In this document: positions 2,588 through 60,064 of the stretch, in pieces | Position numbering within the stretch: the stretch's first letter is position 1 | Layout: each line of letters starts with the position of its first letter | Source: Escherichia coli | GTDB lineage: Bacteria > Pseudomonadota > Gammaproteobacteria > Enterobacterales > Enterobacteriaceae | Assembly: GCF_003790525.1 (NCBI RefSeq) | Contig: NZ_CP033635.1 | Direction: 5' to 3' (one strand) | DNA length: 64,000 bases | The notes under the pieces: generated by a model | What the model was told of the DNA's origin: nothing | The model's database searches: none | What the model saw: only the letters and a program-made list of their open reading frames with translations | Made by a program: the position numbers and the translations under genes

Positions 2588-3802
2588 ATGAAATTACCGA
2601 TTTATCTCGACTACTCCGCAACCACGCCGGTGGACCCGCGTGTTGCCGAGAAAATGATGCAGTTTATGACGATGGACGGAACCTTTGGTAACCCGGCCTC
2701 CCGTTCTCACCGTTTCGGCTGGCAGGCTGAAGAAGCGGTTGATATCGCCCGTAATCAGATTGCAGATCTGGTCGGCGCTGACCCGCGTGAAATCGTCTTT
2801 ACCTCTGGTGCAACCGAATCTGACAACCTGGCGATCAAAGGTGCAGCCAACTTTTATCAGAAAAAAGGCAAGCACATCATCACCAGCAAAACCGAACACA
2901 AAGCGGTACTGGATACCTGCCGTCAGCTGGAGCGCGAAGGTTTCGAAGTCACCTACCTGGCACCGCAGCGTAACGGCATTATCGACCTGAAAGAACTTGA
3001 AGCAGCGATGCGTGACGACACCATCCTCGTTTCTATCATGCACGTGAATAACGAAATCGGCGTGGTGCAGGATATCGCGGCTATCGGCGAAATGTGCCGT
3101 GCTCGCGGCATTATCTATCACGTTGATGCAACCCAGAGCGTGGGCAAACTGCCTATCGACCTGAGCCAGTTGAAAGTTGACCTGATGTCATTCTCCGGTC
3201 ACAAAATCTATGGCCCGAAAGGTATCGGTGCGCTGTATGTGCGTCGTAAACCGCGCGTACGCATCGAAGCGCAAATGCACGGTGGCGGTCACGAGCGCGG
3301 TATGCGTTCCGGCACTCTGCCTGTTCACCAGATCGTTGGTATGGGCGAAGCCTATCGCATCGCAAAAGAAGAGATGGCGACCGAGATGGAACGTCTGCGC
3401 GGCCTGCGTAACCGTCTGTGGAACGGCATCAAAGATATCGAAGAAGTTTACCTGAACGGTGACCTGGAACACGGTGCGCCGAACATTCTCAACGTCAGCT
3501 TCAACTACGTTGAAGGTGAGTCGCTGATTATGGCGCTGAAAGACCTCGCGGTTTCTTCAGGTTCCGCCTGTACGTCAGCAAGCCTCGAACCGTCCTACGT
3601 GCTGCGCGCGCTGGGGCTGAACGACGAGCTGGCACATAGCTCTATCCGTTTCTCTTTAGGTCGTTTTACTACTGAAGAAGAGATCGACTACACCATCGAG
3701 TTAGTTCGTAAATCCATCGGTCGTCTGCGTGACCTTTCTCCGCTGTGGGAAATGTACAAGCAGGGCGTGGATCTGAACAGCATCGAATGGGCACATCATT
3801 AA
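2588..3802 (+). CDS. iscS: Cysteine desulfurase IscS
   Basis: Start chosen at [16 protein letters not shown] (ATG 2588), 404 aa; ORF-track start 2564 is a 5' extension. Confidence 0.95.
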
Positions 3803-3829
3803 TCGGTATCGGAATCAGGAGAATTTATA

Positions 3830-4216
3830 ATGGCTTACAGCGAAAAAGTTATCGACCATTACGAGAATCCGCGTAACGTGGGTTCTTTTGACAACAACGA
3901 CGAGAACGTCGGCAGCGGCATGGTGGGTGCACCGGCCTGTGGCGACGTGATGAAGTTGCAGATTAAAGTCAACGATGAAGGTATCATTGAAGACGCGCGT
4001 TTTAAAACTTACGGCTGCGGTTCTGCTATCGCTTCCAGCTCCCTGGTCACCGAATGGGTGAAAGGGAAGTCTCTCGACGAAGCGCAGGCGATCAAAAACA
4101 CCGATATTGCTGAAGAACTTGAACTGCCGCCAGTGAAAATTCACTGTTCTATTCTGGCAGAAGACGCGATCAAAGCCGCCATTGCGGACTATAAAAGCAA
4201 ACGTGAAGCAAAATAA
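3830..4216 (+). CDS. iscU: Fe-S scaffold IscU
   Basis: 128-aa ORF MAYSEKVIDHYENPRNVGSF with conserved Cys. Confidence 0.95.
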   Translation: MAYSEKVIDHYENPRNVGSFDNNDENVGSGMVGAPACGDVMKLQIKVNDEGIIEDARFKTYGCGSAIASSSLVTEWVKGKSLDEAQAIKNTDIAEELELPPVKIHCSILAEDAIKAAIADYKSKREAK

Positions 4217-52677: not shown

Positions 52678-53022
52678 ATGAGAAAACAGATACAGGCTCT
52701 TGGTCGACTCAAAACAGGCCAGATGAACAAAACAGAATCTGCGTATTGCCAGCACCTTGAGCTGCGTAAACGTGCAGGGGAAATCGCCTGGTATCGATTC
52801 GAGGGTATCAAGCTGCGGTTAGCTGACAACACGTTCTATACGCCCGATTTTGCTGTGATGCTCGCCACCGGCGAGATGGAACTGCACGAAGTGAAAGGTT
52901 TCTGGACCGACGACGCTAGGGTGAAAACCAAAGTCGCCGCAGATCAGTATCCGTTCCGAATCATCGGGGTAACGGTTAAACCAAAGAAAGCAGGTGGTGG
53001 CTGGAACATCGAAGAGTTCTGA
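52678..53022 (+). CDS. Small PD-(D/E)xK-like nuclease (nin-region)
   Basis: 114-aa ORF with YTPDFAVM...GEMELHEVKGFW (D, E-x-K pattern). Confidence 0.4.
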   Translation: MRKQIQALGRLKTGQMNKTESAYCQHLELRKRAGEIAWYRFEGIKLRLADNTFYTPDFAVMLATGEMELHEVKGFWTDDARVKTKVAADQYPFRIIGVTVKPKKAGGGWNIEEF

Positions 53023-53083
53023 ATCGACGATCTTTTTAGTTATCAATGTAATCAATAAGTTATGTGGATAAGCGAGGGTAAAG

Positions 53084-53626
53084 ATGGAAAGTAATATCAA
53101 AGGGTTAGTTGCCGCCGGGCATGAGATGGCTTCGGAACTGAAAGCTGAATGTGGTGCCGTTGATATGCGTAGTGTGGCAAAGCTGCTCAGCGATTTGGCA
53201 ACGCAACTGGAAGTGCAACTGGTGCGTGCTAATGCGCTGGCCGAAGACCAACAGAGAGCGATTGAGTCAATTAAGCAGGCTGATTCGGCTGTTAAGTTGG
53301 CACACAAGAAGTTTTCGGAGCTGGCAGCGGAGAATGCGGCACTGAAGGCTGCGCACCCTCAACCATTCGGACCTGAGATGATGAAGGCTCTTGATGCGTA
53401 TGAGAAGTATCAGGATGAAGTGCCGGAGACTGGGATGCTCAATGCATTTTTCATCTTGCGCGACAGTATCCGTGTTGACACCCCAGCCACCGACGCTTTC
53501 CTAGCTGAAGTTCGAGCGCAGGGTGTAGATATGGCAGCTTGCGCCCTTGATAACGTAAACCAGTTCAATTACGCAAACATGCTCGATGATTTAGCGCAGA
53601 AGATTCGCAAAGGAGTGCAGTCATGA
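53084..53626 (+). CDS. Hypothetical phage protein
   Basis: 180-aa ORF, helical/coiled-coil composition. Confidence 0.4.
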   Translation: MESNIKGLVAAGHEMASELKAECGAVDMRSVAKLLSDLATQLEVQLVRANALAEDQQRAIESIKQADSAVKLAHKKFSELAAENAALKAAHPQPFGPEMMKALDAYEKYQDEVPETGMLNAFFILRDSIRVDTPATDAFLAEVRAQGVDMAACALDNVNQFNYANMLDDLAQKIRKGVQS

Positions 53627-53808
53627 AAAACCGTAAAGCCAAAATCATCGTTCTTCGCGCTCTGAAAAACTGCTACCCGCGCCAATGGCTGAATGTAAGC
53701 AATCGACGCATGGTTCTCTTCACGCTAGGTGGTGTTAGCCGTGAAGGGCATCAATTCAAAAACAGCGCAGCACAGAATCGCTGGAAGAATCATGCGAGGT
53801 TCCAATGA
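53623..53808 (+). CDS. Small basic protein, paralog 1 (MKNRKAK family)
   Basis: 61-aa ORF starting ATGAAAAACCGTAAAGC, ATGA overlap with upstream stop; ends AAQNRWKNH. Confidence 0.35.
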   Translation: MKNRKAKIIVLRALKNCYPRQWLNVSNRRMVLFTLGGVSREGHQFKNSAAQNRWKNHARFQ

Positions 53809-53914
53809 GCAATATCGACAAGCGGCCTCTACGTGACAAGCTGTCACCGTATGACACAGAAGAGATGCTTGAGGCTATGCGTATTTTTCTGTAAGAACAG
53901 GGAGGTGAGCAAAA

Positions 53915-54232
53915 ATGACGATCACAAAACAACGGGTAGAAGAAATCATATCCCGCATTGAAATGTATGGGCATGGCGCAGGGTATACCGCCGAAGAGGT
54001 TTATGACCTGGCTGTACTGGCGCTGAATTTATCAAATATCGCAAAACTCAAGCGATACGAGCTTGATATGGATGGTTGTGACTCGTTCGGTCAGGATTGT
54101 GGCGCTGACATGACTGAAGATTCTGATGGCGATTATGTCCTGTTTGATGACGTGGTTAAGTTGTTTGAGTTTGATACAACCACTCAGAAGATAGAAAGCC
54201 CAGCAAAGGAGGCAACCAGTGAGCAAGATTGA
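53915..54232 (+). CDS. Hypothetical phage protein
   Basis: 105-aa acidic ORF. Confidence 0.35.
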   Translation: MTITKQRVEEIISRIEMYGHGAGYTAEEVYDLAVLALNLSNIAKLKRYELDMDGCDSFGQDCGADMTEDSDGDYVLFDDVVKLFEFDTTTQKIESPAKEATSEQD

Positions 54233-54773
54233 CTATCAGGCACTGCGTGAAAAGGCAGAGAAAGCAACGTGTGGTGTATGGTCGATCGAATATGGAGAGA
54301 GCCGATTTGATGGTGATGATGCGTTAATTCACCGTGAAGTTGCTGGATATATTCCCATTTGCAGAATTGAAGGAGCGCATCCTGAAAGCGGTTTCGATGA
54401 AGATTTCCAAACTGAACAGCAGGCCAATGCTGAATTCATCGCCGCAGCCAATCCGGCTACTGTGCTGGCGCTTCTGGATGAACGGGAAAGAAACCAGCAA
54501 TACATCAAACGCCGCGACCAGGAGAACGAGGATATTGCGCTAACGGTAGGGAAGCTGCGCGTTGAGCTGGAAGCCGCAGAGAAGCGCATAGCAGAACTGG
54601 AAGCGCGGGAAATACTGCTCCCTGAACGTAGCAGCATGCTTCATCGAACAGATTTTCACGATGATTACCAAACGGTAATGGCATACAAAGTTTCTGAAGT
54701 CATCGATGCAATCCGCGCTACTGGCATTTGCATCAAAGGAGACGCAGGAGAGCAAAACGATGAAAAACCGTAA
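54219..54773 (+). CDS. Ead/Ea22-like protein
   Basis: 184-aa ORF MSKIDYQALREKAEKATCGVWSIEYGE, resembles lambdoid Ea22-like proteins. Confidence 0.5.
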   Translation: MSKIDYQALREKAEKATCGVWSIEYGESRFDGDDALIHREVAGYIPICRIEGAHPESGFDEDFQTEQQANAEFIAAANPATVLALLDERERNQQYIKRRDQENEDIALTVGKLRVELEAAEKRIAELEAREILLPERSSMLHRTDFHDDYQTVMAYKVSEVIDAIRATGICIKGDAGEQNDEKP

Positions 54774-54936
54774 AGCAAAATTACTTCTTTTATCGCGTTC
54801 GACGGGGTACGAGAAGCTACCAATCAGCAATCACAAACGGGCGGTGATCGGCATGTTTGGTAGGGTGGTATTCGCATTTAACTATAAACCCACCGCGTCG
54901 CGGAACAGACGAGAGAAGGGGTACGCAGTGCGATGA
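54760..54936 (+). CDS. Small basic protein, paralog 2 (MKNRKAK family)
   Basis: Starts with the same ATGAAAAACCGTAAAGC inside the 3' end of the Ea22-like gene. Confidence 0.3.
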   Translation: MKNRKAKLLLLSRSTGYEKLPISNHKRAVIGMFGRVVFAFNYKPTASRNRREKGYAVR

Positions 54937-55124
54937 AAAACCGTAAGGCAAAGATGCTGATAGCAAAGCCCGGGCAGCGTATCCGTATCTCAAATCGGCT
55001 TGTTATTTACTATAGATATCTGGGTTTTAGGGGGTGTTCCTCTATTCGTTTTTACGGTGTCTGGCGAAACAGAAGCGCAGCACAAAACCGCTGGAAAAAC
55101 CACTTTCGCACTAAAGGAGAGTGA
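54933..55124 (+). CDS. Small basic protein, paralog 3 (MKNRKAK family)
   Basis: 63-aa ORF, same 5' sequence, ends SAAQNRWKNH like paralog 1. Confidence 0.35.
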   Translation: MKNRKAKMLIAKPGQRIRISNRLVIYYRYLGFRGCSSIRFYGVWRNRSAAQNRWKNHFRTKGE

Positions 55125-55125
55125 T

Positions 55126-55875
55126 ATGACCACTTTCACCGACAAAGAACTGATTAAAGAAATCAAAGAGCGTATCAGCAGCCTGGACGTTCGAGACAAT
55201 ATTGAACGCCGGGCTTATGAAATTGCACTGGCATCGCTGGAAGCAGATCCAGTTGCTTATATTTTCAAACATCCGGCCGGGAAATTATTCTGGGCTTTGA
55301 CGGATGAAAGCAATAAAGAGCAATCGGACGTTATTCCTGTTTATGCCGCCCCTCCAGTGCCAGTAGTACCTGAAGAAAAACCAATGCCTAACCCTCTTAA
55401 AATGTACGCGGTCGATGCTGTTGCCGCTATTGCAGAGGTGAGAGGCTGGAACGCCTGCCGCGCCGCCATGCTTCAGGCCGAACCTGTAAGTAATAGTGAT
55501 GAGTTACCGCTGGACTATCTGCAAGGACACAAAGACGGCCTGGAGTGGGCTGCACAATTGGCAGAAGCCAATCATCCGCAAACAGGTGACTGGTTGTACG
55601 ACGACCCAATCGATCTTGCCAGGGCGATTCGCAAAGGTCCTGATATGCCTACTGTTCAGGCTGGCAACTATCCGGTAACTCCGGATGGTTGGATAAGCTG
55701 TAGTGAGCGAATGCCCGCTCAAGATGATTGGATTTTTATTTATTCAAAGCACGGCGAGTATATGGCAGGACAGGTACAAGGGGAATACGTGGAGTTGAGC
55801 GACGGCACTTTATCGTGGTTAGGGAACGCCTTGTACTGGATGCCTCTACCGGAACCGCCGCAGGAGGTTAATTGA
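55126..55875 (+). CDS. DUF551-family phage protein
   Basis: Start MTTFTDKELIKEIK after GGAG RBS; C-terminal YWMPLPEPP signature. Confidence 0.55.
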   Translation: MTTFTDKELIKEIKERISSLDVRDNIERRAYEIALASLEADPVAYIFKHPAGKLFWALTDESNKEQSDVIPVYAAPPVPVVPEEKPMPNPLKMYAVDAVAAIAEVRGWNACRAAMLQAEPVSNSDELPLDYLQGHKDGLEWAAQLAEANHPQTGDWLYDDPIDLARAIRKGPDMPTVQAGNYPVTPDGWISCSERMPAQDDWIFIYSKHGEYMAGQVQGEYVELSDGTLSWLGNALYWMPLPEPPQEVN

Positions 55876-56159
55876 TGGTCTCCTTCGCGAAATATACGAT
55901 TATTGACTGGATAGCATTCATTCAGGTTTTGCTCATCTGGTTTTATATGGCTTACAGGAGTGGACAGTGGATTGTCAGTGTAGCCTGTAGCAATGGATGG
56001 CGTTGGTGGAACCGAAAGAATAAAAAAGCGCTGGCCTTGGCTTCGTTTTACGAAGCATTCAATCTTAACAGTCTTCAGCCTGGTTCTGTCGTTGTAGTCA
56101 CCACTCAAAGCGGCATGACGATACAAATTCACAAGCCAAAGGAGGAAGGTCGTGGCTAA
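55872..56159 (+). CDS. Hypothetical small membrane protein
   Basis: 95-aa ORF with hydrophobic N-terminal segment. Confidence 0.3.
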   Translation: MMVSFAKYTIIDWIAFIQVLLIWFYMAYRSGQWIVSVACSNGWRWWNRKNKKALALASFYEAFNLNSLQPGSVVVVTTQSGMTIQIHKPKEEGRG

Positions 56160-56433
56160 CCTGCAACTTGCCGTTAAAGGTGAATACTTCGATGCCATGA
56201 TTCGCGGGGAGAAAACGGAAGAGTATCGCCTGTGTAATGACTACTGGAATAAGCGAATTATGTTCCGCGAGTATGACCGCCTGATTATCACAAAGGGATA
56301 TCCGAAGCGCGACGATTCCAGCCGCAGAATTGACGTCCCGTATGACGGATATGAAATCAAGACAATCACACATCCGCACTTCGGCGATAAACCGGTAAAG
56401 GTGTTCGCTATAAAGGTGAATATTGATGGCTAA
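56152..56433 (+). CDS. ASCH-domain-like protein
   Basis: 93-aa ORF MANLQLAVKGEYFDAMIRGEKTEEYR. Confidence 0.4.
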   Translation: MANLQLAVKGEYFDAMIRGEKTEEYRLCNDYWNKRIMFREYDRLIITKGYPKRDDSSRRIDVPYDGYEIKTITHPHFGDKPVKVFAIKVNIDG

Positions 56434-56764
56434 ATCAGCAGCAGAGCGCAAAGCCGCGCAGCGCGCTCGGCAGTCCGCCGCCGGTGAGCGCAAAATTGAA
56501 CTGGTGCTGGATAAGCAGGAGCAGGAAATGCTGGCGCGGAACTGCGCCGCCCGGCGCCCTGGTCACGATCCCTATGAAATGGCCGAGTACATCGCGCTGC
56601 TGATCCGCCAGGATGATGCACGTGTGCGCGGGCGTATAAAATCGATCAGTAGAAAACGTTGCGGTAAGTGCGGCGAGAGAGTTCCAGTTAATTCATGTCC
56701 GTGTAATGGTGACTCGCAATGCTGGGTGACTAAAGGCTGGCATGAAACGAAATTAATAGTGTGA
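56423..56764 (+). CDS. Cys-rich hypothetical protein upstream of terminase
   Basis: 113-aa ORF with basic N-terminus and C-terminal CGKCG...CPCNGDSQC. Confidence 0.4.
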   Translation: MMAKSAAERKAAQRARQSAAGERKIELVLDKQEQEMLARNCAARRPGHDPYEMAEYIALLIRQDDARVRGRIKSISRKRCGKCGERVPVNSCPCNGDSQCWVTKGWHETKLIV

Positions 56765-56882
56765 CATGTCACGAGTAGATTATGCATGATGAATTTGATG
56801 GGTTTTGAATACTGCCGCCAACTATGGCGGCTTTATTTTGCATGGTACTATTACCACAACGGTAACTATTACCACGGTGGTT

Positions 56883-57479
56883 ATGATGCCTGCTGAACCT
56901 AAAACCTATAAACGCAAATCAACGCAATTTAAGCCGCTCACAGCAATGCAGGAGGCTTATTGCCAGTCATACATCAAAACGCCTGAAAACCAGACTCAGG
57001 CAGCGATTAACGCAGGATTCTCCCCAAATACAGCGGCAGTTAAAGCCAGTGTCATGATGCGCGATGAACGCATTCAAAAACGGATTGCCGAGTTGATGGA
57101 GGAGCGCAACAAACGAATGCGCGTCAGTGCTGATTACGTTCTCATGCGCCTGGTGGAGATCGACCAGATGGACGTGATCGATATCCTCAACGACGATGGG
57201 AGCCTTAAACCAATCCGTGAGTGGCCGAAAATCTGGCGCACTACGCTTAGTGGCTTTGATCTGTCATCGACCATCATGAACATGAACGAGGATTCGATAG
57301 AGACAATCCTCAAAAAAATTAAATGGCCTGACAAGGTGAAGAACCTCGAACTGATTGGTAAGCACGTCGACGTTAACGCGTTCAAAGAACGTCTGGATGT
57401 TAATGTGAATGTGACAATTGCTGATCGCATAGCAGCAGCCAGGAAGCGACTCAAAGAACGTCAGGATGGTAATCAGTGA
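56883..57479 (+). CDS. Terminase small subunit
   Basis: Positioned immediately before terL with GTGA stop/start overlap; start inferred at MMPAEPKTYKRK. Confidence 0.5.
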   Translation: MMPAEPKTYKRKSTQFKPLTAMQEAYCQSYIKTPENQTQAAINAGFSPNTAAVKASVMMRDERIQKRIAELMEERNKRMRVSADYVLMRLVEIDQMDVIDILNDDGSLKPIREWPKIWRTTLSGFDLSSTIMNMNEDSIETILKKIKWPDKVKNLELIGKHVDVNAFKERLDVNVNVTIADRIAAARKRLKERQDGNQ

Positions 57480-58950
57480 CAGATACAGCGTTATCTCCTG
57501 AAGAGCAGTTGATCGAGGATATTGCAGGGTTCACTCACGATCCGCTTGGCTATGCCCTCTATGCGTTCCCGTGGGGGAAGAGGGTACTGAACTGGCACAT
57601 GCCACCGGCCCACGTCAGTGGCAGGCTGATGCGTTCCGAGAGATACGTGATCACCTGCAGAATCCAGAGACGCGCTATCAGCCGCTTATGCTGGCACGCG
57701 CTTCTGGTCACGGTATTGGTAAATCCGCATTCATCTCAATGCTGATCAACTGGGGCATGTCCACTTGCGAGGATTGTAAGGTCGTGGTGACCGCCAACAC
57801 CGACAACCAGCTACGAACTAAGACCTGGCCGGAAATTATCAAGTGGTCGAACCTTGCTATCACGAAAGACTGGTTTACCTGTACCGCTACCGCGATGTAC
57901 AGCAATGATCCTGGGCACGACAAGCGGTGGCGAGCTGACGCAATCCCTTGGTCTGAGCACAACACTGAGGCATTCGCCGGACTACACAACGAGCGTAAAC
58001 GCATCATCGTGGTATTTGATGAAGCGTCGAACATTGCGGATCTGGTGTGGGAAGTTGCCGAGGGTGCGCTAACGGACGAAGACACTGAGATTATCTGGGT
58101 GGCGTTCGGAAACCCTACACGTAACACCGGACGTTTCCGCGAATGTTTCCGCAAATATAAACACCGCTGGAAAACTGCGCAGATTGACAGCCGAACGGTG
58201 GAAGGCACTAACAAACAGCAGTTGCAGAAATGGGTTGATGACTACGGGGAAGACAGCGACTTCGTTAAAATCCGTGTGCGCGGCATATTCCCTGATGCAT
58301 CTGAATTGCAGTTTATCCCTACCGGTCTTACTGATGAGGCAATGAAACGGGTGGTGACCGCTGCGCAGGTGGCGCATGCTCCGGTGATAATCGGTGTTGA
58401 CCCGGCATATTCAGGCGTTGATGACGCGGTGATATACCTGCGGCAGGGGCTACACAGTAAGGTGCTGTGGACTGGCAACAAGACTACCGACGATCTGATT
58501 ATGGCGAAGCGTATCGCTGACTTTGAAGACCAGTATCAGGCTGACGCGGTGTTCATCGACTTCGGTTACGGAACCGGTTTGAAGTCAATCGGTGATGGCT
58601 GGGGACGTACATGGCAACTTGTTCCGTTCGGTGGCGCGTCTACTGACCCGCAGATGCTCAACAAGCGTGGGGAGATGTTCAACTCATGCAAGACATGGCT
58701 GAGGCTCGGCGGCATGCTGGATGACCAGGAAACTGCAGACGACCTGTCGGCGGCAGAGTACAAAGTTCGTGTGGACGGTAAAATCGTTATCGAACCGAAG
58801 GAAGATATCAAAGAGCGGCTTGGGCGTTCGCCTGGTAAAGGCGATGCGCTACTGCTGACGTTTGCTTTCCCGGTGTCAAAGCGCCTGCGACTTCCCGGGC
58901 AGCAGAACCAGCAAGGCAAGGCGCTTACCGAGTACGATCCATATGCTTAG
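57476..58950 (+). CDS. Terminase large subunit, apparently frameshifted in a G5 run (57573-57577)
   Basis: Coupled GTG start 57476 gives 32 codons in one frame; Walker-A (GHGIGKS) body continues in another frame from 57571; adding one G restores a single ORF. Confidence 0.7.
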
Positions 58951-59987: not shown

Positions 59988-60064
59988 TGGCGCGGCATGC
60001 AGGATTCGAACCTGCGACCAACCGCTTAGAAGGCGGTTGCTCTGTCCAACTGAGCTAATGCCAC
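59988..60064 (-). tRNA. tRNA-Arg (anticodon UCU), phage-encoded
   Basis: 77-nt cloverleaf folded by hand: acceptor GTGGCAT/ATGCCGC, anticodon loop CTTCTAA, T-loop GCAGG-TTCGAAT-CCTGC, encoded CCA. Confidence 0.85.

Follow-up and report, generated by a model that had tools for sequence, protein, structure and literature searches.

Results

Three related small genes in a prophage early region

The window analysed here is a stretch of 64,000 nucleotides of Escherichia coli DNA (contig NZ_CP033635.1, assembly GCF_003790525.1), numbered from its first letter. It holds a phiV10/epsilon15-like prophage whose early accessory gene array, between the replication and the terminase genes, contains three small open reading frames (ORFs), which we call copies A, B and C. 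These genes, their repeats and their conserved junctions are the following.

53623-53808, plus strand: copy A, 61 amino acids (aa), isoelectric point (pI) 12.0, tail ..NHARFQ, family PHROG 1380
53764-53792, plus strand: DNA coding for SAAQNRWKNH in copy A, a 29-nucleotide (nt) repeat with 86% identity to the copy C version
54732-54759, plus strand: copy B start region, 28 nt, ..CAAAGGAGACGCAGGAGAGCAAAACG, from the alignment of upstream DNA across phages
54760-54936, plus strand: copy B, 58 aa, pI 11.6, "first-position" tail ..NRREKGYAVR, PHROG 1380
54933-55124, plus strand: copy C, 63 aa, pI 11.8, tail ..FRTKGE, PHROG 1380
55074-55102, plus strand: DNA coding for SAAQNRWKNH in copy C, the partner of the 29-nt repeat in copy A
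55105-55128, plus strand: 3' junction TTCGCACTAAAGGAGAGTGATATG (tail, ribosome-binding site, stop and next start), conserved across phages

The first-pass annotation of this DNA had described three tandem paralogs whose starts overlap the stops of the genes before them. The overlaps were confirmed. Copy A begins in the ATGA (53623-53626) that ends an upstream gene of 180 aa, and copy C in the ATGA (54933-54936) that ends copy B. Copy B begins 14 nt before the TAA (54771-54773) of an Ea22-like gene of 184 aa (overlap 54760-54773), and this stop therefore falls within the 17-mer described below. A mechanical ORF list uses an upstream ATG at 54706 for copy B; we placed the start at 54760 because of family homology and of the ribosome-binding site (GGAG, 9 nt before 54760). 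The tandem arrangement applies to B and C only, as copy A is separated from B, 951 nt farther downstream, by three other ORFs.

An identical 17-nt 5' end had also been attributed to the three genes. The 17-mer ATGAAAAACCGTAAAGC is exact at 53623 and 54760 but matches at 16 of 17 positions at 54933, where AAA is replaced by the synonymous AAG; the stretch identical across the three copies is 14 nt, ATGAAAAACCGTAA, not 17. Matches to ATGAAAAACCGTAAAGC with at most two mismatches number three in the 64-kb window, against a mean of 0.03 after shuffling, and three were reached in 0 of 100 shuffles. With its flanking bases, the 5' repeat is 22 nt long with 86-95% identity between copies. Self-comparison of 53500-55250 revealed only two patches of DNA shared among the copies, these 22 nt and the 29 nt that encode SAAQNRWKNH. 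The A and C versions of the latter differ at four bases, all silent third-codon positions, with no amino-acid change. The motif AAQNRWKNH, reported as the end of two products, is indeed present in A and C but is internal, being followed by four residues (ARFQ) in A and six (FRTKGE) in C, and copy B holds the degenerate motif TASRNRREKG in its place.

Family membership, coding status and selection

All three proteins matched the hidden Markov model (HMM) of PHROG 1380 over their full length, with E = 6.7e-29 for A (residues 1-61), 5.8e-23 for B (1-58) and 5.5e-13 for C (1-63). PHROG 1380 is a catalogued family, annotated as of unknown function, that includes PhiV10p50, PhiV10p51 and VT2-Sa p08. 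Compared with copy A, the B protein is 28% identical and the C protein 45%. Among 40 diverse members (58-71 aa), N3, R4 and R53 are invariant, and M1, K5, A6, L9, S26, N27, A49, Q51 and N52 are at least 90% conserved. Pfam contained nothing significant for copy A, and nothing at E <= 0.001 for any of 17 family members, and NCBIfam gave no match at E up to 1 for the three proteins.

For the comparative analysis we used 88 sources, namely 87 related loci and the window, with 75 unique coding sequences (CDS); the 87 loci were gathered by peptide patterns including M[KN]NRKAK. R28, R29 and G37 are invariant in the unique CDS yet encoded by several codons. The pooled within-subfamily ratio of non-synonymous to synonymous differences (pN/pS) ranged from 0.08 to 0.43 in seven of the eight subfamilies, and was 0.09 for the A type. 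As judged from these substitution patterns, our results show that A, B and C are old, diverged paralogs that code for protein and are under purifying selection. The paralogy and the small-protein family suggested by the first-pass annotation are thus both upheld, the former by the full-length PHROG 1380 matches and the latter by these matches together with the coding pattern and the purifying selection.

Conserved junctions around the gene bodies

We then compared the DNA that flanks the family genes across phages. Upstream contexts fall mainly into three classes. In class 1, ..CGCAAAGGAGTGCAGTC stands directly before ATGA, behind eae-like genes, as at copy A; in class 2, ..CAAAG(G)AGACGCAGGAGAGCAAAACG precedes the ATG, as at copy B; class 3 is the tail of a preceding family copy, as at copy C. 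The 28 nt before the ATG in class 2 are read in frame 3 by the Ea22-like gene (..GDAGEQNDEKP, ending at the TAA in the 17-mer) and in frame 2 by an upstream ORF of 58 aa (..AKKRRRAKR, ending at aTGA). These two contexts are one 1-nt indel apart and unrelated farther upstream, and the 5' conservation of class 2 (28 + 17 nt) is independent of the reading frame of the neighbour. Since the conserved 28 nt are read in two frames, the start region of the small gene supplies the last codons of the gene upstream; in the window, it is the copy B start region that provides the final ~9-14 codons of the Ea22-like gene (..GDAGEQNDEKP).

Read in frames 1, 2 and 3, the 14-mer gives ATG, TGA and TAA, respectively. 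With a stop in both of the other frames, upstream genes in either frame therefore terminate inside it. The stop used is aTGA before A and C, whereas the Ea22-like gene that precedes B stops at cgTAA. When each unique context is scored by its longest upstream ORF, 34 terminate at aTGA, 5 terminate at cgTAA and 4 are in frame with the small gene. The four in-frame contexts give fused or over-extended gene calls, for example the 155-aa VT2-Sa p08.

Similar signals are found on the 3' side. The DNA of the copy C tail ..FRTKGE contains AAAGGAG (55113-55119), which serves the following gene as ribosome-binding site, and the tail of copy B contains the start region of copy C. The eae-like gene in front of copy A likewise encodes AAAGGAG (53609-53615) in its tail ..IRKGVQS, as the ribosome-binding site of copy A, and this class of eae-like/copy A junction recurs at A-type loci. 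Across phages, the 3' junction is conserved through the next ATG, after which come at least seven unrelated downstream genes. The tail DNA ACTAAAGGAGAGTGAtATG holds a stop together with the ribosome-binding site and the start that the following gene uses, and AGAAGGGGTACGCAGTGCGATGA is the start region for a second copy; the tails are position-specific because of the start signals that each must encode for the gene that follows. The proposal that these are conserved translational-coupling junctions agrees well with the alignments, in which ATGA overlaps recur and the ~28 nt in front, with the ribosome-binding site among them, stay conserved even when the upstream gene reads them in another frame.

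The first codons are also restricted. K2 is AAA in 71 of 71 sequences, R4 is CGT in 66 of 75 and K5 is AAA in 68 of 75, compared with a synonymous entropy of 1.7-1.9 bits at R28 and R29. Distant members keep NRKA(K/R) with other codons, e.g. ATGAGCAACAGAAAAGC, so the N-terminal peptide itself is constrained as well. One could imagine from such conservation that the 17-mer and its flanks form a DNA or RNA element, a regulatory site or a recombination signal, in which the ORFs are incidental: conservation of the 5' codons and of the 28 nt upstream exceeds the need of protein coding, and each of the three frames of the 14-mer has a start or a stop. This explanation does not fit the full-length protein homology (28-45% identity) despite diverged DNA, the silent-only changes in the C-terminal motif, the pN/pS well below 1 or the change of codons under a preserved NRKA(K/R), and an Rfam scan of 50-58 kb found no RNA family at E up to 1. 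The substitution pattern largely refutes it, and we consider it very improbable.

Copy number and order of the copies

The number of family copies per source, counted within 3 kb on either side, is one in 57 of the 88 sources, two in 29 and three in 2. One locus is a triple tandem, and the window is the only source with an A-type copy upstream of a B-C pair. All 31 multi-copy loci have one order: first a copy whose tail is ..G[YDG]AVR and then, across a 4-nt ATGA overlap, a copy whose tail is ..(T/A)KG(E/D/A). Such a fixed order indicates that the B-C pair is an old arrangement and not a recent duplication. A recent tandem duplication, which would serve gene dosage as the first-pass annotation had considered, would account for the adjacency and homology of B and C. 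It is contradicted by the divergence of the copies, which share only 22 + 29 nt of DNA and have 28-45% protein identity to A, and by the presence of the B-C arrangement in phages with otherwise different neighbours. We regard it as barely conceivable, and the dosage proposal falls with it. Between near-identical prophages the copy number varies from 0 to 3, which indicates that the genes are not essential.

Reassortment of junctions, bodies and neighbours

The gene bodies cluster into 11 types. For body type 0, either tail is found, as are junction classes 2 and 3; body type 2 has several junctions and is followed by many kinds of downstream gene. In the pairs, first-position bodies have several different second-position partners, at least three in the case of one body. 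The comparison of loci shows upstream junction, body, tail and neighbouring genes in many combinations, and these fit exchange at short conserved ends. Lambdoid mosaics have been described as exchanging modules through "flanking, short and conserved sequences", and diverged DNA recombines efficiently by homeologous recombination (PMC2327257).

These combinations also bear on the possibility that B and C form an obligate heteromeric pair whose members act together, their ratio being fixed by ATGA coupling, and that copy A works by itself or as a homomer. The identical order, 4-nt overlap and position-specific tails in all multi-copy loci speak for such a pair, as does purifying selection on first-position copies where it can be tested (pN/pS 0.08 for the RLFLQRP type). 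Partners are nevertheless combinatorial, a given first-position body occurring with three or more second-position bodies, one body type occurs in either position, and most sources (57/88) have a single copy; moreover, the tails are explained more simply by the start region encoded for the next gene. We therefore think an obligate pair unlikely.

One near-isogenic comparison was available, with E. coli LS45 (NZ_CP095448), which carries a prophage at the same chromosomal locus with flanks ~99% identical. There, 680 bp of the window (53523-54202) are replaced by 207 bp (LS45 2024-2230). The module concerned comprises the end of the eae-like gene, copy A, a 29-aa ORF and a 105-aa ORF. The right breakpoint lies at a CAAAGGAG junction, and the window and LS45 versions both end in ..ATTCGCAAAGGAG.. 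or ..CAAAGGAGGCAACCAGTGAGC junctions.

Protein properties and predicted fold

The three proteins are strongly basic (pI 11.6-12.0), with 14-17 Lys + Arg against 1-2 Asp + Glu and a net charge of +13 to +16. AlphaFold2 predicted an alpha-beta3-alpha topology (helix 4-15, strands 20-26, 29-34 and 37-44, helix 49-59), with a mean predicted local distance difference test score (pLDDT) of 72.6 from a 17-sequence alignment and 71.6 from a 40-sequence alignment, the topology being unchanged. The residues most conserved in the 40 members (N3, R4, K5, S26, N27, Q51, N52 and R53) lie in the N-terminal tail, in the turn of the first hairpin (SNRR) and on the C-terminal helix (QNRWKNH). A sequence profile search of the Protein Data Bank (PDB) and a fold comparison gave no significant match.

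Several relationships were tried and rejected. A NUMOD4/AP2/integrase-arm-like domain, to which "W.(V/I)SNRR" and the beta3-alpha order had drawn attention, gave hhalign probabilities below 1%, leaving a topological resemblance only. Identity with lambda orf61 or orf63, based on a coincidence of size (61 and 63 aa), was rejected since phage 933W has separate homologs of these. Lambda Orf55, predicted by others to be beta3-alpha, reached an hhalign probability of 0.4% against the family profile.

The charge, the predicted fold and the conserved Asn, Arg, Lys, Gln and Ser positions suggest, tentatively, that these ~60-aa proteins might be non-essential, nucleic-acid-binding modulators of early infection or of lysogeny. 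The main alternative is that their target is instead an acidic protein of the host, for example a defence sensor, RNA polymerase or a nuclease, and that they are counter-defence or host-takeover factors whose paralogs reflect an arms race. The family indeed occupies the variable accessory regions of Stx lambdoid phages, Uetakevirus, P1-like phage-plasmids and Sashavirus, its copy number changes from 0 to 3 between near-identical prophages, and its bodies vary around invariant motifs. On the other hand, selection within subfamilies is purifying and not diversifying, and the invariant residues are polar or basic and equally suited to nucleic-acid contacts. PADLOC, a library of defence rather than anti-defence systems, returned no match at E up to 10, and a literature search by motif strings, PHROG identifier and locus tags found nothing relevant to the family. 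A role in counter-defence or host takeover thus seems to us rather unlikely.

The prophage and the neighbouring genes

The first 5000 bases of the window are E. coli chromosome (isc-suhB region), 100% identical to several strains. The early region of the prophage is collinear with that of phage phiV10 (Uetakevirus, epsilon15-like), in the order DnaT-like and P-like replication genes, DUF1064, eae-like, Ea22-like and DUF551, ASCH, a regulator and the terminase genes. From ~51.0 to 56.8 kb, every gene is on the plus strand and the genes are densely packed. No complete RefSeq E. coli genome or phage record covers more than 77% of 53000-55900, which indicates that this region is highly mosaic. The genes around copies A to C are the following.

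53084-53626, plus strand: eae-like gene, 180 aa, PHROG 492/614 (phiV10 p46 is annotated "eae-like")
53805-53894, plus strand: 29-aa ORF that starts MSNIDKR.LR as Ea22-like genes do and then diverges; ATGA overlap with the copy A stop
53915-54232, plus strand: 105-aa ORF, PHROG 3126, annotated as of unknown function
54219-54773, plus strand: ead/Ea22-like gene, 184 aa, named from PHROG 250/368 and by the NCBI annotation pipeline (PGAP)
55126-55875, plus strand: DUF551-type gene, 249 aa, PHROG 60/5117, downstream of copy C

The 29-aa ORF has no PHROG match. In relatives, A-type copies are followed by a full Ea22-like gene, and this ORF is probably a recombination remnant of that gene.

The first convincing terminator-like hairpin of the array is at 56814-56831. 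It consists of GCCGCC..GGCGGC and a T-run, just 3' of a regulator-like ORF (56423-56764). The small-terminase ORF, in its longest form (56805-57479), has this hairpin within its 5' end, a position which suggests that the ORF truly begins farther downstream. A tRNA-Arg (anticodon TCT) is located at 59988-60064 on the minus strand, ~1 kb downstream of a 459-aa ORF (57571-58950) on the opposite strand that we take to be the large terminase.

Distribution and annotation of the family

The exact A, B and C proteins are present on 289, 95 and 95 public contigs, respectively, always under the name "hypothetical protein" or "prophage protein", and the 933W-type protein on at least ~1000. An HMM search of 1.84 billion cluster representatives retrieved 47 clusters only, all of them small enterobacterial phage ORFs or fusions or frameshifts of such ORFs, and among these 47 there was no informative domain fusion. 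The hosts of PHROG 1380 are Stx-converting lambdoid phages, phiV10-like phages (Uetakevirus), P1-like phage-plasmids and a Salmonella Sashavirus. Among 5426 complete E. coli genomes, 698 have B-C-like DNA, 341 of the matching places being on plasmids, and many of the matches extend over conserved junction segments only; A-type DNA was detected in only 9 of the 5426 and is commoner in Enterobacter and Citrobacter. The P1-like phage-plasmids (~95-155 kb) carry a two-copy unit with ~67% DNA identity to B-C, beside EaA-like and RecT-like genes (3828-4189 of P1-like phage MH422554), which indicates that this is an accessory cassette exchanged between very different temperate phage types.

Annotation of the family is uneven. 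In 933W (AF125520), an intact 62-aa PHROG 1380 gene (3766-3951, minus strand) is absent from the GenBank annotation. The annotated L0068 (3546-3833) starts inside this gene in another frame, its first 24 residues being an out-of-frame reading of the family gene, and its true start is likely MAIAASYT... The 155-aa annotation of VT2-Sakai p08 is an in-frame over-extension upstream, and is probably the basis of PHROG 12350. In LS45, RefSeq/PGAP left intact B (2788-2964) and C (2961-3152) copies unannotated, and flagged an intact 184-aa Ea22-like ORF (2247-2801) as a C-terminally truncated pseudogene. Many public family entries are frameshifted near the C-terminal motif (..LQKAQRGAKPLEKPLA..) or fused in frame, either to an upstream Ea22-like N-terminus or to the DUF551 gene downstream. 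Such entries suggest that decay, errors in sequencing or annotation, or rearrangement at junctions is frequent.

Discussion

Copies A, B and C are diverged paralogs of one phage family, and each behaves as a small cassette, in keeping with a portable unit that brings its own start region. Such a cassette consists of a ~28-nt start region with its ribosome-binding site, then ATGAAAAACCGTAA..., a variable body, ..SAAQNRWKNH.. and a tail, and the tail encodes the ribosome-binding site and the start of whichever gene comes next. We propose that the three genes are translated from a polycistronic early transcript, through their own ribosome-binding sites and stop-start coupling. The near-identity of their 5' ends may have three causes acting jointly: a strongly conserved N-terminal peptide (M-K/N-N-R-K-A-K/R), an additional constraint that acts on the start region at the level of the nucleotides, and exchange between cassettes, by recombination or gene conversion, at their short conserved ends.

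We consider this reading as a whole probable. Several points weigh against it. The first-pass annotation had suggested module shuffling at a recombination-prone junction. The reassortment of junctions, bodies, tails and neighbours agrees with the shuffling, whereas the left breakpoint in LS45 lies inside the eae-like gene and not at the 17-mer or a junction. The codon-entropy comparison covers related sequences, with shared ancestry uncorrected, and the synonymous entropy at N58 and R59 is likewise low. The pattern M[KN]NRKAK used in collecting the loci inflates the apparent N-terminal conservation among them; NRKA(K/R) is still present in distant members found by a pattern-free HMM search. 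The B-type subfamily has barely diverged (pS 0.012), and its pN/pS of 0.74 does not allow selection to be judged. The confidence of the alpha-beta3-alpha model is only moderate, and the translation and activity of A, B and C are inferred from the DNA.

The likeness among family members is not in itself new, since the phiV10 record already notes the resemblance of p51 to p50 and to VT2-Sa p08. The 5' repeat is explained by an ordinary, already catalogued paralog family, and the tandem copies are already annotated as hypothetical proteins. The locus nevertheless offers a clean natural example of phage accessory genes that would carry their own translation start region and be reshuffled at short conserved ends. 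The family is widespread and often mis-annotated or missed, as in the 933W GenBank record, VT2-Sa p08 and the LS45 RefSeq annotation, and a functional assignment would add a small-protein player to the early development of Stx and related prophages. One could go further and see in PHROG 1380 a self-contained, promiscuously recombining "plug-in" cassette whose basic alpha-beta3-alpha products form a new class of modulators binding nucleic acid or host factors; taken as a whole, we find this quite improbable. Were it true, the 14-mer and the tail with its ribosome-binding site would let the cassette join almost any gene without breaking the translation of the operon, the products, often a heterotypic pair in fixed order, would act in early phage development or in counter-defence, and thousands of enterobacterial prophages, Stx phages among them, would be concerned.

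Comparison with known systems

The predicted fold recalls the GCC-box-binding domain of AP2/ERF proteins and the arm-type N-terminal domains of integrases, in which a three-stranded antiparallel sheet is likewise followed by a C-terminal helix. These beta3-alpha DNA-binding domains share with PHROG 1380 a basic N-terminal tail and conserved Arg and Trp on or near the strands. The PHROG 1380 model differs by an extra N-terminal helix, its beta3-alpha unit is at pLDDT ~72, and there is no significant structural or profile similarity between the two groups.

A second comparison concerns the small proteins of the exo-xis region in lambda and in Stx phages (Orf60a, Orf61, Orf63, Orf73 and Orf55; 55-73 aa), which are of similar size. 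They also resemble the PHROG 1380 proteins of Stx phages in their accessory position in the early pL operon and in roles that are unknown or modulatory, and the PHROG 1380 family is not discussed in the sections covered of a paper modelling the exo-xis proteins. The two groups differ in that they have no homology, and the 933W homologs of orf60a, orf61 and orf63 (L0070-L0072) lie elsewhere than its PHROG 1380 copy.

At the DNA level, the closest parallel is with lambdoid module boundaries, where short conserved DNA flanks unrelated modules, as it does at the family genes, and where recombination is homeologous or microhomology-based, of the Red/RecET type. In contrast to lambdoid boundary sequences, the conserved ends in the window fall in part within a small gene, whose protein and start region constrain them as well; their conservation therefore need not reflect recombination alone. 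Finally, the PHROG 1380 members of phiV10, VT2-Sakai and 933W have, like those of the window, the MKNRKAK, SNRR and SAAQNRWKNH motifs and a position in the early accessory region. In phiV10, as in the window, two copies (p50 and p51) stand in tandem with an ATGA overlap, and it is the third, A-type copy that sets the window apart from these relatives.

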